Below, piece by piece: positions 9,610-31,505 of a DNA stretch of 64,000 nt; the stretch's first letter is position 1; every line of letters begins with the position of its first letter. Both the position numbers and the translations under genes were made by a program. The stretch comes from a virus. The stretch lies in the IMG/VR virus record IMGVR_UViG_3300029922_000003; one strand, 5' to 3'. The notes beneath the pieces were generated by a model. It did no database searches and was not told the origin of the DNA. It saw only the letters and a list, made by a program, of their open reading frames with translations.

Positions 9610-10188
9610 CTACCTACAAAAGGTCTGTATACATCGATCTACTTCATTTTCCAAATCTATCTTTGTGCCATGGTTTTTTATTTCAATATTATAAGCTAAC
9701 TCATTTGTCTCACTAACATGACCACTAGAGTCAATTTGTATGTGAGACTCTGGAGGCAGGATCTTTATTACCTTACCACCAAGTCTCATAACCATCTGGG
9801 ATTCGTTGTCGAACCTTAGATCCTCGATTGCCACCTTCCCTCCAGAATCAAGAATGGTCCTAGCCTTCATCTCGGCAATATTGACCCAAATATCGTAGCA
9901 AAATAGGTTACGACCCCAATCGGTACCAAGGCTTTGCATTGCATATCTAGGTGACTTTCCACCCAGAGCCTCGCATGGTTGCTCTTTGAGAGATCCCTCA
10001 ATCATTTCATGAATTACATCATCAGGTATTCCGGCCTCTTCAAATAGGGTTATAAGCATCCTCTTTAAGGGTCTGGCAAATTTAAATGTTGTGTATCCAT
10101 GCTTATCCCTAAGAATCCTGGACGCCGTACTCTTGCCACACCCTGCTGGTCCGACAAATGCTATTACTCGTGGTTGTTCCTTTTTCAT
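9610..10188 (-). CDS. Deoxynucleoside monophosphate kinase
   Basis: True start ATG 10188 (MKKEQPRVIAFVGPAGCGKST); P-loop, FARPLK, PRYAMQSLGTDWGR, IEDLRFDNE. The ORF-track extension to 10302 lies inside the IS. Confidence 0.9.
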   Translation of the reverse strand: MKKEQPRVIAFVGPAGCGKSTASRILRDKHGYTTFKFARPLKRMLITLFEEAGIPDDVIHEMIEGSLKEQPCEALGGKSPRYAMQSLGTDWGRNLFCYDIWVNIAEMKARTILDSGGKVAIEDLRFDNESQMVMRLGGKVIKILPPESHIQIDSSGHVSETNELAYNIEIKNHGTKIDLENEVDRCIQTFCR

Positions 10189-10202
10189 CAAAATTTGTGG
10201 GT

Positions 10203-10231
10203 GGAAACCGCGTCCTTTAGGACGCCTTTCC
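10203..10231 (+). repeat. IS left-end hairpin
   Basis: GGAAA-CC-GCGTCC-TTTA-GGACGC-C-TTTCC. Confidence 0.8.
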
Positions 10232-10639
10232 GGGTTTGGTTTGTTGTGACTGAACGTAAAGCTTGAGCGTCTCGATTGGTGCGCCTCCACAGGAAGCGGC
10301 AAAGAAGCTAGGAGTCCAAAAAGCGGAACCCCACAGTTTTTTACGAAGCTCGTCCTTGCAGTCTCTCCGTGCTACAAAGGAACTGTTTCCTTTAAGGGCA
10401 TTCGCCATTTCAGAGATGCTGACTTTTGGCGGATACTCGACAACAAGGTGAACGTGGTCTTTGTCGTGGTTAAGTTCCACGAGAACCAAGTCCAGACGCT
10501 TGGCGGAAAGATCGAATCCGTAGCGAAGGCTTGTCCACACCGAATCTGAAATCACCGCATGGCGGTATTTCACGACGAAAACCAGATGCACGAGCAATCT
10601 GGAGACGCTGTGATTATTTCTTCGTAATTCGGTTGACAT
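10217..10639 (-). CDS. tnpA: Y1 HUH transposase TnpA
   Basis: ATG 10639 MSTELRRNNHSVSRLLVHLVFVVKYR; HUH motif DHVHL; FWTPSFFAASCG; catalytic Tyr in LKLYVQSQ. Confidence 0.92.
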   Translation of the reverse strand: MSTELRRNNHSVSRLLVHLVFVVKYRHAVISDSVWTSLRYGFDLSAKRLDLVLVELNHDKDHVHLVVEYPPKVSISEMANALKGNSSFVARRDCKDELRKKLWGSAFWTPSFFAASCGGAPIETLKLYVQSQQTKPGKAS

Positions 10640-10669
10640 TGTTTTTTCTTGGTAGTAGTATTCAATGTA

Positions 10670-11851
10670 GTGAAAGCAATCCGCACAGTCAAGCTCAAAA
10701 TTTCCGGCAGCACAAAAGCTGACGGGTTGCTTACTGTTTGGTTGAAGGCGGCGAACTGGCTTTCCGACATTGTCTTCAAGACCGAGGAATTGAACTCGAA
10801 TCGACTGGCAAAAGCCCACTACGCCAACCTCCGGGAGATGGGGTTGCCGTCTCAGTTGGCCTGCTCTCTCTGCAAAACAGTCTGCGCTACCTACAAGACC
10901 GCCAGATCGAACAAGCGATGGAGATTGGCTAAGTTCTCCCGCGCCGTGATCCCTGTGGTGTGGAAGCGGGACTTCAATCGCACCCAAAAAGGCGTCACGC
11001 TTTGGGGTGAACTTTTGACCGTTGCTGATTCCCGCCCATTGCCGGAAGGCGCATGGAAAGACTCCAAGATCAAGCGCGTCGGCAGGCAGTGGTTTCTCTG
11101 CTTGGCTCACGAAGTCGAGATCCCCGAGCCAAAGACCGAGGGCTGCATTGTCGGCTGTGATTTCGGCATCAAGCGAATGCTGGTCGCTACCAACTCGGCA
11201 AACGCCAAACCATTTTTCTTCCACGGCGGGGTGTTGAATCACCGTCGTTCTTGTATCCGGCGCACCCGCGCTGCTGTTCAGTCTGTTGGCACCAGAAGTG
11301 CTCGGCGACTCCTGAAAAGGATGTCCGGGCACGAGGCTGCCGTAACAGCGCACTTGCTCCACACAGCAAGTAAGGCACTGGTCAGCTACGCGGTTGAAGT
11401 CGGAGCAAGAAAGGTCGTGGTCGAAAACTTGGAGAATATACGAGACAGTTCTCTGAGCAAAGGGAAGGACTTGCGTTCCAAGGTTCACCGATGGCCTTAC
11501 GCCGATATGCGATTCAAGATCGCATACAAGGCAGCCGCCGTTGGAATTGAATTGGAAGCGGTCAGTCCTCGCAACACAAGCCGTGGGTGTAGTGCCTGCG
11601 GCCATGTCTCGGCATCGAACCGGAAAGGCTTGCGCTTCTGTTGTCAGAAGTGCGGCCACAAGGACGACGCAGACCGCCAAGCCTCGAAGAACATCCGGGC
11701 GCGGTCTGTCTCCATAGCGTGCAACGCTTCGGAGACGGCGAGCATTAAAGCCGCTAAAAGCATCGGGTCTGTCGATATTGACTCTGAATCGTGCGTTCCG
11801 CATGGCGATTTGGTGTTGGTGAAGGACTCGGCTAAATCCCCGTGCCTTTAG
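10670..11851 (+). CDS. tnpB: RNA-guided nuclease TnpB, catalytic residues intact
   Basis: Likely GTG start 10670 (MKAIRTVKLK); RuvC-I GCDFG, RuvC-II VVENL, Zn finger CSACGH..CQKCGH, RuvC-III DADRQASKNI. Confidence 0.92.
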   Translation: MKAIRTVKLKISGSTKADGLLTVWLKAANWLSDIVFKTEELNSNRLAKAHYANLREMGLPSQLACSLCKTVCATYKTARSNKRWRLAKFSRAVIPVVWKRDFNRTQKGVTLWGELLTVADSRPLPEGAWKDSKIKRVGRQWFLCLAHEVEIPEPKTEGCIVGCDFGIKRMLVATNSANAKPFFFHGGVLNHRRSCIRRTRAAVQSVGTRSARRLLKRMSGHEAAVTAHLLHTASKALVSYAVEVGARKVVVENLENIRDSSLSKGKDLRSKVHRWPYADMRFKIAYKAAAVGIELEAVSPRNTSRGCSACGHVSASNRKGLRFCCQKCGHKDDADRQASKNIRARSVSIACNASETASIKAAKSIGSVDIDSESCVPHGDLVLVKDSAKSPCL

Positions 11852-11886
11852 GCCGGGGAACTTTAAATTTTACCCTCCATTATTGC
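11700..11886 (+). ncRNA. Predicted TnpB omega/reRNA (scaffold boundary approximate) plus flank-derived guide
   Basis: Established location of TnpB guide RNAs over the tnpB 3' end and right end; 5' boundary not determinable from sequence. Confidence 0.5.
11837..11859 (+). repeat. IS right-end hairpin
   Basis: TCCCC-GT-GCC-TTTA-GGC-C-GGGGA preceded by AAAT and followed by ACTTTAA. Confidence 0.85.
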
Positions 11887-12186
11887 TTTGTATGCTGCGA
11901 TCAGATCTTCAGCAGAAGACTCTCCGCTTTTCTTTTGCTCCTCTACCTTTATGTATGGATATGAGTCCTTAATAAATTCAATCAGGTTGTCAGATCTATT
12001 TGAATTGGCCTTATTGATATTGTCTGGCGATATATAGTTCATACCACCAAGAGCCTCTATCTTGGCCCTATAGATGTCTGAGTTGTTCTCGTGGGACATA
12101 CCAAGACACGCCATTTCAAGGCGCAGCTCTTCATATCCATCTGGCATATCCAGATGACTTCTCCCACCAGATGTTACACCCCGCAA
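11863..12186 (-). CDS. Tail assembly chaperone, frameshift extension (gpT-like)
   Basis: Frame is open from 12234, overlapping the end of the upstream gene in the -1 frame. Confidence 0.6.
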   Translation of the reverse strand: MRGVTSGGRSHLDMPDGYEELRLEMACLGMSHENNSDIYRAKIEALGGMNYISPDNINKANSNRSDNLIEFIKDSYPYIKVEEQKKSGESSAEDLIAAYKAIMEGKI

Positions 12187-30361: not shown

Positions 30362-31258
30362 TTATAGGGCTTGTGGAGCAGAATATTCAATTTGTTTAAC
30401 TTCCTGCTTGTCCTTTAATGACAACTCCCTCTCTTTATCTCCAATCATTTTCCTCACTGGATCATTATAGTCAAGACTAGAAGACACTTCCTTGATCCCA
30501 CCCCAAAGAGCTTTTCTGAAGTAATCCCCATTTGCGATAGCACCCTCTGCTGTTTTGTTTTGTTCAGCAATACTCATGGCATTGGTGAGAGAGATGTGCC
30601 GCTCAAAGTCACAAGGCCTCGCCTTCATAGTCATTCTTGCACCAAGTACAAACTCACTAGCCTGCATTTCAAGAGACTGCCTCATTGATTCAGATATCTT
30701 CTTTGAAACATCCGTAGCCACATTCATTCTCCTCTGTAGCAGGTTCCTTGAAATCTGCCACCCAAAGGCATACGAAAGTCCCAACCAAAGACAAGTAGCT
30801 GCAACATCTTCAGTAAGCTGCTCAGACTTATTGTATGGAGAAATAAGGGAGTAAATAAGTGTATCGCAATCCAAATACTCTTCTACATCAAAAAATAGCT
30901 TCAGGTAGCAATCAATATTCTTTCGTTTAGTCCTAAAGCTTTTTGCTATGTCTTCTATATTTTTACCGCCAAGAAACATAGCCTGTATTGTAGTCCCAAG
31001 CCCATTGTTAACATTGCCACAAAAACAGGAATATGCGTACCTGACCTCTGGGTAGTGACACGCACCATGTACAAGCAGTGAATAAAAATCTATGACATAC
31101 TTGTCGTCTTCCGATAGTGGTATTACAGATGGATTTTGCTCCCCACGCTGCTGAGCCTCTTGGTAAGCACGACGATACTCTAGCGCCTGCTGCGCCCTCC
31201 ATGCTGGTGTATAATTGGGGTCGGAACTAAAGTCCCGAGAGTACATCTTTATGCTCAT
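30362..31258 (-). CDS. Hypothetical protein
   Basis: 298 aa ORF; starts ATGA at the target site of the IS remnant. Confidence 0.7.
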   Translation of the reverse strand: MSIKMYSRDFSSDPNYTPAWRAQQALEYRRAYQEAQQRGEQNPSVIPLSEDDKYVIDFYSLLVHGACHYPEVRYAYSCFCGNVNNGLGTTIQAMFLGGKNIEDIAKSFRTKRKNIDCYLKLFFDVEEYLDCDTLIYSLISPYNKSEQLTEDVAATCLWLGLSYAFGWQISRNLLQRRMNVATDVSKKISESMRQSLEMQASEFVLGARMTMKARPCDFERHISLTNAMSIAEQNKTAEGAIANGDYFRKALWGGIKEVSSSLDYNDPVRKMIGDKERELSLKDKQEVKQIEYSAPQAL

Positions 31259-31505
31259 ACTAATTCGGATATTTATATGCGAAAACTGCGGCGAGCATTT
31301 GGACAGAGATCAGAATGCCGCGAAAAACATTCTTCAATTTGCCGGTGGACAGCCGGTTAAAGGACATGGAGAGCATATCAGTCACGCCAAGGCTTCGGCC
31401 TCGGCGCGCAATGCTCGTCGAAGTGTCAACCAACCTAGCTCTGCAAATGTCTAGCATATTTGTATTCAAGGAATCCCCGCGCCTTCAGGCCGGTGAGGAT
31501 GTCAA
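31259..31505 (+). mobile_element. Degenerate IS605-family remnant (tnpB 3' fragment, omega-RNA region, right end)
   Basis: Translates FICENCGEHLDRDQNAAKNIL (TnpB Zn finger/RuvC-III); right end GAAT-CCCCGCGCCTTCAGGCCGGTGAGGATG-TCAA; TCAT immediately left; no left-end hairpin seen. Confidence 0.85.

Follow-up and report, generated by a model that had tools for sequence, protein, structure and literature searches.

An IS605-type element at a reconstructed ATGA stop/start overlap of a peat-soil phage, with relatives found mostly at gene starts

INTRODUCTION

How can a transposable element of 1.7 kb come to lie between two tightly packed phage genes and leave the products of both as they were? This question is raised by a locus in a 64,000-nucleotide (nt) stretch of DNA (the window) from the 103-kb IMG/VR virus record IMGVR_UViG_3300029922_000003, which represents an uncultured phage from a peat-soil metagenome. 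At positions 10189–11866 (plus strand, 1678 bp), the window carries a complete element of the IS200/IS605 family with the IS605-type layout, and the left end of this element abuts the ATG of a gene for a deoxynucleoside monophosphate (dNMP) kinase. A first-pass annotation made from the sequence alone proposed that the element had entered an ATGA stop/start overlap without changing either protein, that its TCAT target directs insertion to coupled gene junctions, and that its stop-containing end makes the insertion nearly neutral. The observation was confirmed: we assign a probability of ~85% to the reading that a genuine IS200/IS605 insertion lies at an ATGA overlap, with both flanking proteins unchanged. 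The interpretation as a whole is partly supported.

RESULTS

The element supplies a stop codon and leaves both flanking proteins unchanged

The phage genes around the element lie on the minus strand. The kinase gene (9610–10188, minus strand, 192 amino acids (aa), PF21448) starts with an ATG at 10186–10188, and the target site TTCAT (10184–10188, plus strand) is the reverse complement of ATGAA at this gene start. On the other side lies a gene for a 107-aa protein of no Pfam family (11863–12186, minus strand), whose TAA stop codon (11863–11865) and the third base of whose last codon (11866) are located within the element. The element begins with C10189 (CAAAATTTGTGGG...) and ends with A11866 (...GGGGAACTTTAA). 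It has neither terminal inverted repeats nor a target-site duplication, and its flanks, TTCAT on the left and ATTTT on the right, are unrelated to each other.

On the gene strand, the occupied junction reads GGT AAA ATT TAA. When positions 10189–11866 are deleted in silico, the junction reads GGT AAA ATA TGA, and this TGA overlaps the kinase ATG. Since the terminal TTAA of the element provides a TAA stop for the 107-aa gene, the sequence of each protein is identical whether the element is present or absent, the upstream one ending in MEGKI before its stop codon and the kinase starting with MKKEQ. The position of TCAT (10185–10188), the end at TTAA, the preserved MEGKI terminus, and the ATA TGA that appears upon removal had all been given correctly, to the base, in the first-pass annotation; the empty site itself is a reconstruction.

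By its gene content, the element is a genuine and complete IS200/IS605 insertion sequence (IS) with divergent tnpA and tnpB, as in the IS605 layout. The tnpA gene (10217–10645, minus strand) encodes a 142-aa Y1 HUH transposase (Pfam PF01797, Y1_Tnp, E = 2.7e-33) and is transcribed in the same direction as the phage genes, with its stop codon 28 nt upstream of the kinase ATG. Among solved structures, TnpA is matched best by ISHp608 TnpA (E = 6e-18); the alignment preserves both the HxH motif (DHVHLV) and the catalytic-helix Tyr (LKLYVQSQ). The tnpB gene (10649–11851, plus strand) runs antisense to its phage neighbors and could start as early as the TTG at 10649, although the GTG at 10670 is the likelier start. 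Its product matches PF07282 (Cas12f1-like_TNB, E = 7e-18) and PF01385 (OrfB_IS605, E = 2e-8). In comparison with Cas12f and TnpB structures, the RuvC Glu (...VENLE...) and Asp (...DADRQASKNI...) motifs and the two CxxC pairs of the zinc ribbon are aligned; the first RuvC Asp (GCDFGI) was assigned by inspection only. The G+C content of the element is ~0.53–0.58 compared to ~0.45 in its flanks, and the element is the sole full copy within the 103-kb record. An Rfam search of the element returned no omega-RNA family, the only match being a ctRNA at chance level.

Both ends fit guide/cleavage pairing of the IS608 type

The left end (10189–10231, plus strand) comprises a conserved 21-mer at 10189–10209 (CARARTTTGTGGGTKGAAACC), which includes the guide GAAA (10204–10207) and two conserved C residues (10208–10209), and a hairpin that follows these residues (GCGTCC/TTTA/GGACGC, 10210–10225). 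At the right end (11834–11866, plus strand), the guide AAAT (11834–11837) abuts a hairpin with a bulged T (CCCCG(T)GCC/TTTA/GGCCGGGG, 11838–11858), and the cleavage site TTAA is located at 11863–11866. The left cleavage site of IS608 precedes the foot of the hairpin by 19 nt on its 5′ side; the four bases 5′ of this foot serve as the guide, and C-3 and T-4 of the site pair with guide bases 1 and 2, respectively (PMC3201880). In the window element, TCAT ends at 10188; GAAA lies 15 nt away, and the foot lies 19 nt away if C10208 and C10209 are counted. The pairing of GAAA with TCAT comprises C-3:G1, T-4:A2, and T-1:A4; Barabas et al. are said to have reported in 2008 that position −1 pairs with guide base 4. 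A longer stem around the left hairpin (GGAAA...TTTCC), which would shift the guide, was considered and rejected: its conservation among relatives is incomplete, and GAAA agrees better with the spacing known from IS608.

The 21-nt left end was used to scan IMG/VR, JGI/ENA metagenome contigs, and GTDB genomes, which yielded 24 distinct insertion sites (individual loci are designated by L numbers below). TCAT is located directly 5′ of the left end at 24/24 sites, with T at −5 in 18 and at −6 in 14 of them. The left-end stems covary among copies (GCGTCC/GGACGC, CCGCCC/GGGCGG, CCGTGC/GCACGG, CTCCCC/GGGGGA, and others). Independent copies with unrelated flanks (L041, L042, L043/L037, L044/L053, L054, L063, and L069) match up to the same base, the similarity ending exactly after ...CTTTAA.

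The right ends fall into four subfamilies: guide AAAT with site TTAA (the window element and others), GAAT with TCAA (L045, L058, and L065), CAAT with TGAA (L062, L067, and L068), and AAAG with TTAC (L036, L038, and probably L055). Each boundary is backed by copies whose flanks part right after the cleavage site. Positions −3 and −1 of the site covary with guide bases 1 and 4 across these four guide/cleavage pairs, following Watson-Crick rules. The left ends cannot be used for such a test since the loci were chosen by them; the right ends can. Together with the IS608 geometry, the covariation upholds the assignment of GAAA to TCAT and of AAAT to TTAA that had been made from the window alone. 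All cleavage sites have the form T-N-A-N; therefore, the right end yields a stop codon on the opposite strand whenever position −3 is T or C. In the TGAA subfamily, the right end reads TTCA on the other strand and contains no stop.

The common 21-nt left end spans elements whose TnpB proteins are only 25–30% identical and which use four guide/cleavage pairs, and tnpA is carried by only 2 of the ~24 elements that share this left end. Such a combination of one left end, divergent TnpB, and scarce tnpA suggests that many TnpB lineages may be mobilized in trans by one kind of TnpA.

Relatives of the element lie mostly at gene starts

At 18 of the 21 informative sites, the ATG beside the left end begins an open reading frame (ORF) that is 60 codons or longer and lies on the other strand from tnpB. 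The closed ORFs span 61–713 codons, and two more run off their contigs after at least 416 and at least 481 codons. Among 1024 ATGA sites in the same flanks, 32% open such an ORF (P = 5e-7). The sites that are not at starts are L041, L055, and L059. L055 and L059 are the only copies found in cellular genomes; when genome contigs were scanned, the left-end pattern was present in two cyanobacterial metagenome-assembled genomes (MAGs) only, which carry these two copies, and a TnpB protein scan of genome contigs found nothing.

ATGA overlaps account for 5 of the ~14 sites with both flanks, in addition to a decayed second copy in the window that is described below, so that homologous elements are enriched at such overlaps, as the first-pass annotation had expected. 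The window without the IS (62 kb) contains ~490 ATGA sites and ~10 plausible stop/start overlaps. When an element enters an ATGA overlap, the NNA codon that ends the upstream gene becomes NNT, and the encoded amino acid stays the same for 8 of 14 sense codons. The change is silent in the window (ATA to ATT), L045 (CGA to CGT), and L063 (GTA to GTT) and replaces Lys with Asn in L058 and L040 (AAA to AAT). The silent outcome is thus roughly a coin toss. At other loci, a spacer precedes the ATG (4 nt in L054, 7 nt in L067, 9 nt in L069, 32 nt in L042, and 83 nt in L053).

Much of this pattern could be produced by survivorship alone, an explanation to which we give slightly less than even odds. 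According to it, TnpA reads just TCAT, insertions outside gene starts and ATGA overlaps are lost from gene-dense phage genomes, and both the right-end stop and the synonymous codon change follow incidentally from the T-N-A-N form shared by the cleavage sites. The target is only four to five bases long, two of the four possible right ends of T-N-A-N form give a stop on the other strand, the 3/5 silent outcomes among relatives match the 8/14 expected from the codon table, one subfamily (TGAA) provides no stop, and two cyanobacterial copies and one viral copy occupy non-start positions, all of which favors survivorship. The explanation has more difficulty with the frequency of gene starts, since among background sites that interrupt no gene only 29% lie at starts according to a crude gene call, compared to 86% observed. 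Insertion at an ATG also removes the ribosome-binding site of the gene and so should not be harmless by default, and tnpB is recoded in a way that keeps the host strand open (see below), which suggests selection tied to lying backwards in operons. Of the claim that the TCAT target directs insertion to coupled junctions, the enrichment at gene starts and ATGA overlaps therefore stands, while the word "directs" goes too far, as survival of harmless insertions can explain much. The claim that the stop-containing end preserves proteins is true in the window and not universal: the TGAA subfamily has no stop, and the codon change is silent for 8 of 14 codons only.

A reading frame opposite to tnpB is free of stop codons

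On the host-gene strand, a stop-free frame spans positions 10217–11866 (minus strand), that is, between the right junction (11866) and the stop codon of tnpA (10217), in the codon-complement register of tnpB. Its first ATG is at 11803, and the resulting 528-aa ORF is in frame with tnpA. A stop-free frame in this register means that tnpB uses no TTA, CTA, or TCA codons. Expected numbers of these codons were computed from the third-position usage of each gene; for the window tnpB, ~15 are expected and none is found.

The same was observed in all 13 full-length elements sharing the left end. Their stop-free frames cover 88–100% of the element, while the other two reverse frames are open for no more than 130–420 nt. 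TnpB proteins of these elements are 25–100% identical to that of the window, and the observed number of TTA, CTA, and TCA codons is 0–2 compared to 8–17 expected (P from 4e-3 to 6e-8). Three further elements that target TCAT or are close relatives (L036, L037, and L038, with G+C content down to 0.39) contain 0–1 such codons compared to 13–19 expected, bringing the set to 16 elements with a G+C content of 0.39–0.56. In contrast, co-oriented tnpB genes used as controls revealed no avoidance (observed/expected 23/19 in MLC-A, 16/16 in Mgbh1, 6/7.5 in Cimandef, 15/21 in MMB025, and 15/12.6 in L039); this control set is small, and the high-GC controls (Thermus MN1 and RM378) are uninformative. Ordinary genes of the window phage gave 6/9, 29/38, and 27/36. 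Selection for an open reverse frame in tnpB thus seems likely from the codon counts.

The position of the frame relative to the host gene varies. In L041, L052, and L069, it ends in a TGA that overlaps the host ATG; in other copies, it ends 31–91 nt before the host ATG (73–91 nt in most members and 31 nt in the window). The first start codon of the frame is located 23–65 nt inside the element in most copies, usually without a Shine-Dalgarno motif.

An open frame of this kind may allow ribosomes to cross the element and so limit polarity, a purpose proposed for mycobacterial interspersed repetitive units (MIRUs); in the literature, these provide an earlier example of elements that lie at start codons and carry a coupled ORF (PMC12548453). 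MIRUs are repeats of 40–100 bp with a sense ORF, and their mobility mechanism is not known (PMC12548453); the elements considered here, in contrast, are 1.3–1.7 kb long, maintain an open frame opposite to a real gene (tnpB), and are unrelated to MIRUs in sequence and mechanism. A second explanation, which we hold tentatively and would not yet bet on at even money, is therefore that the TCAT-targeting lineage has become adapted to live backwards inside operons, with ribosomes from the host mRNA translating across it. The target would be a start codon, most right ends would restore the upstream stop, and tnpB would avoid TTA, CTA, and TCA, so that polarity is limited and ribosomes are delivered towards the downstream start. 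The codon avoidance in the 16 elements, the extent of the stop-free frame in the 13 full-length ones, the co-oriented tnpB genes from five other phages or contigs that lack avoidance, and the three copies with TGA/ATG overlaps all fit such an adaptation. The distance of 73–91 nt that separates the end of the frame from the host ATG in most members (31 nt in the window) does not, nor does the first start codon lying inside the element and mostly lacking a Shine-Dalgarno motif; the weakness of the controls counts against it as well.

The kinase gene is separated from its ribosome-binding site

In the reconstructed site, a GGAGGG ribosome-binding site lies 6 nt before the kinase ATG, in addition to the stop/start overlap. 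In the occupied site, both GGAGGG and the stop/start coupling are separated from the kinase gene by 1678 bp. No Shine-Dalgarno motif was found in the left end when read in the direction of the kinase (GGTTTCCACCCACAAATTTTG). The idea that the left end brings its own ribosome-binding site for the kinase was ruled out, as left ends of the TCAT-targeting family lack a Shine-Dalgarno motif. The description of the insertion as nearly neutral was thus an overstatement. Upstream of its ATG, the kinase frame also remains open for another 38 codons, running into the left end and reaching a TTG at 10302 (10189–10302, minus strand), which would make a 230-aa ORF; this is probably due to chance.

It is accordingly worth considering that the insertion is costly: the kinase would be uncoupled and poorly made, and the element would be tolerated either because the kinase is dispensable or because TnpB-driven retention outweighs the cost. 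The loss of the nearby GGAGGG, the left end without a Shine-Dalgarno motif, and the tnpA stop, which at 28 nt from the ATG is too far for a classical overlap, would all be expected to reduce kinase synthesis. We nevertheless consider this explanation rather unlikely. Identical, uninterrupted kinase ORFs are present on 24 contigs that come from many samples, and this speaks for selection still acting on the gene; furthermore, both tnpA and the long reverse frame are read towards the kinase and could support re-initiation.

It is improbable that the 528-aa reverse ORF encodes a real protein, such as an N-terminally extended TnpA. Gene callers predict it on many contigs, and it is in frame with tnpA both in the window and in L052; however, most members retain the frame without having tnpA, its start and end positions differ between subfamilies, and the 386 residues that precede TnpA are the complement of tnpB codons, with the recorded Pfam match confined to the TnpA part. 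In public contigs, automatic gene callers called this 528-aa ORF (with its Y1_Tnp match) and missed tnpB entirely.

Search for an IS-free allele

A direct view of the empty site was sought in related phages. The junction expected there is ...GGTAAAAT joined directly to ATGAAAAAG.... Neither megablast of the region against 50,697 phage records nor a scan of IMG/VR for the empty-junction pattern gave a match. No other record of the exact 107-aa product was found, and no relatives of the 107-aa gene were found in IMG/VR. Relatives of the kinase in IMG/VR are at most 44% identical and are uninformative about the junction. Each of the 24 contigs read with a gene for the identical kinase appears to contain the element, which occurs in ~20 peat metagenome runs. 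In four further peat runs, contigs span both element junctions. The nearest IS-free relative is a sister phage with a kinase 66% identical to that of the window, represented by contigs of up to 190 kb. In it, the C terminus of the upstream protein has the same length after a conserved AY. The predicted empty allele was thus not found, and of the expectation attached to it, the abutting gene arrangement was seen in the nearest relative while the ATGA was not.

Several results weigh against our reading of the locus. The IS-free allele of this phage was not recovered, so that the junction AAAATATGAAAAAG (also GGAGGGTAAAATATGAAAAAGGAAC) is a reconstruction. No joint across the element was detected in the contigs of the four further peat runs; only contigs were searched, and rare excision would escape such a search. 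In the sister phage, the homologous 95-aa gene abuts the kinase gene through TAA-A-ATG rather than ATGA. The left hairpin is Watson-Crick paired only from 10210, and placing GAAA at its foot requires that two unpaired C residues be counted. Finally, the kinase gene is parted from its Shine-Dalgarno motif and its coupling, so that the insertion may not be harmless. The sister junction nevertheless fits a recent insertion at a tight gene junction, without proving the ATGA overlap. That the ends are misplaced and the neat stop/start reconstruction is a coincidence is effectively refuted despite the missing empty allele, since the same boundaries are given, to the base, by 24 left junctions and more than 10 right ones, all of them independent.

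A second, decayed copy and reduced relatives

The window contains remnants of another TnpB element (31259–31505, plus strand) consisting of a tnpB 3′ remnant and a right end with guide GAAT and terminal TCAA; no left end is recognizable. This copy lies exactly between a 608-aa gene and a 298-aa gene, in another ATGA overlap. TCAT precedes it at 31255–31258, and the ATG of the 298-aa gene occupies 31256–31258. The TGA stop of the 608-aa gene (31502–31504) is located inside the right end, where it is supplied by the terminal TCAA, and the change from GGA TGA to GGT TGA is silent. A 69-aa ORF on the host strand (31260–31469) spans most of the decayed element and stops 1 nt before the ATG.

Reduced copies were also observed among the surveyed loci. 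L044 and L053 share one site, which is occupied by a full-length TnpB element of 1300 nt in L053 and, on a different contig, by a 196-nt copy with an internal deletion and both ends intact in L044; such contents indicate in-place decay to a gene-less mini-element. In L048 (47 nt) and L040 (43 nt), the start of the left end is fused to the right half of the right-end hairpin, and both copies lie just 5′ of an ATG. The L037/L043 copy (IMGVR_UViG_3300038479_000056) encodes a TnpB 96% identical to that of the window and retains neither tnpA nor the left end. An 800-aa gene still takes its TAA stop from the right end of this copy, and a few bases separate the truncation point from the start of a 430-aa gene that belongs to no known family. 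The only other copy that bears tnpA is L052 (3167–4940), with TnpA and TnpB 97 and 92% identical, respectively, to those of the window element. It adjoins a gene-less hairpin element with a different right end, in a nested or tandem arrangement.

DISCUSSION

The identity of the element, its ends and target, the guide/cleavage covariation, the unchanged proteins, and the family-wide association with gene starts are all shown by the sequences. The element is nothing unusual within its well-studied family, and its ATGA/TCAT target has already been published. Like IS608 (ISHp608) of Helicobacter pylori, it combines a Y1 HUH TnpA with tnpB and subterminal hairpins with a bulged T, lacks inverted repeats and target duplications, and is inserted 3′ of a tetranucleotide read by a 4-nt guide; the left-end site is 19 nt from the foot in both. 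It differs from IS608 in its target (TCAT instead of TTAC), in its right-end site (TTAA instead of TCAA), which ends 8 rather than 10 nt from the foot, in the divergent rather than co-oriented tnpA and tnpB, and in its phage host.

A target of the form N/ATGA, where the slash marks the insertion point, was described for IS605B-1_MA, IS605B-1_HM, and ISC1-1_MA on the basis of 12 verified empty sites (Kapitonov, Makarova, and Koonin 2016, PMC4810608). N/ATGA is TCAT read on the other strand, with insertion directly after it, and is found here at 24/24 sites, without a recovered empty site for the window element. The published elements are mostly tnpB-only and non-autonomous, with ends recognized by a Y1 transposase. 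They were found in cyanobacterial and proteobacterial chromosomes and not in phages, and we compared them by target type and terminal bases: on the gene strand, they read 5′-TT...CG-3′, while the TCAT family reads 5′-TT...TG-3′, so that the termini are not shared. Start codons and stop/start overlaps are not mentioned in that paper ("start codon" occurs 0 times), and our literature search found no other paper that links the N/ATGA target to start codons. In Geobacillus stearothermophilus, TTCAT is both the native target and the target-adjacent motif (TAM) of ISGst5, which encodes IscB (Meers et al. 2023, bioRxiv 10.1101/2023.03.14.532601), whereas the element considered here encodes TnpB. By analogy, TTCAT is the TAM to be expected for this TnpB. 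In the model proposed for ISGst5 and ISGst2, cleavage of the vacant site by the nuclease is followed by recombination that restores the copy (Meers et al. 2023, 10.1101/2023.03.14.532601).

The following sequence of events would account for the locus. The element probably entered the peat-soil phage by single-strand "peel and paste" transposition, in which the left-end guide GAAA would pair with TCAT and lead to integration 3′ of TTCAT, that is, immediately 5′ of ATGA on the gene strand. The right end would be cut after TTAA, as set by the guide AAAT, so that the gene strand reads T-TAA; ATA-TGA would thereby become ATT-TAA, with both the Ile and the stop kept, if the empty site was exactly as reconstructed. 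Once in place, TnpB with a guide RNA from the right end would, by analogy with the published TnpB mechanism, cut IS-free siblings. The putative omega RNA guide flank would be located at 11867–11886 (plus strand), and TTCAT followed by this flank corresponds to the reconstructed empty site. The start-site pattern would then reflect a target motif that coincides with a start codon by chance, together with the loss of harmful insertions from gene-dense genomes, and the recoded stop-free reverse strand of tnpB could lower the cost of residing in an operon.

The patterns seen at the level of the family, namely, start-codon parking, stop-bearing ends, and recoded tnpB, are more interesting than the single element. 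The locus offers a clean, quantified case in which a four-base target equal to a start codon lets a transposon settle in packed phage operons with proteins unaltered, and the codon avoidance hints that these elements have been shaped by being read backwards by host ribosomes. If so, this would explain the persistence of RNA-guided nuclease genes in phages and would yield a simple design rule for placing cargo in operons so that polar effects remain small. Whether TCAT-targeting IS200/IS605 elements are specialized to sit backwards in operons of phages and other gene-dense genomes is a possibility that we put at a little under one half; if they are, built-in features of the element itself would lessen the cost of inserting 1.3–1.7 kb into an operon.

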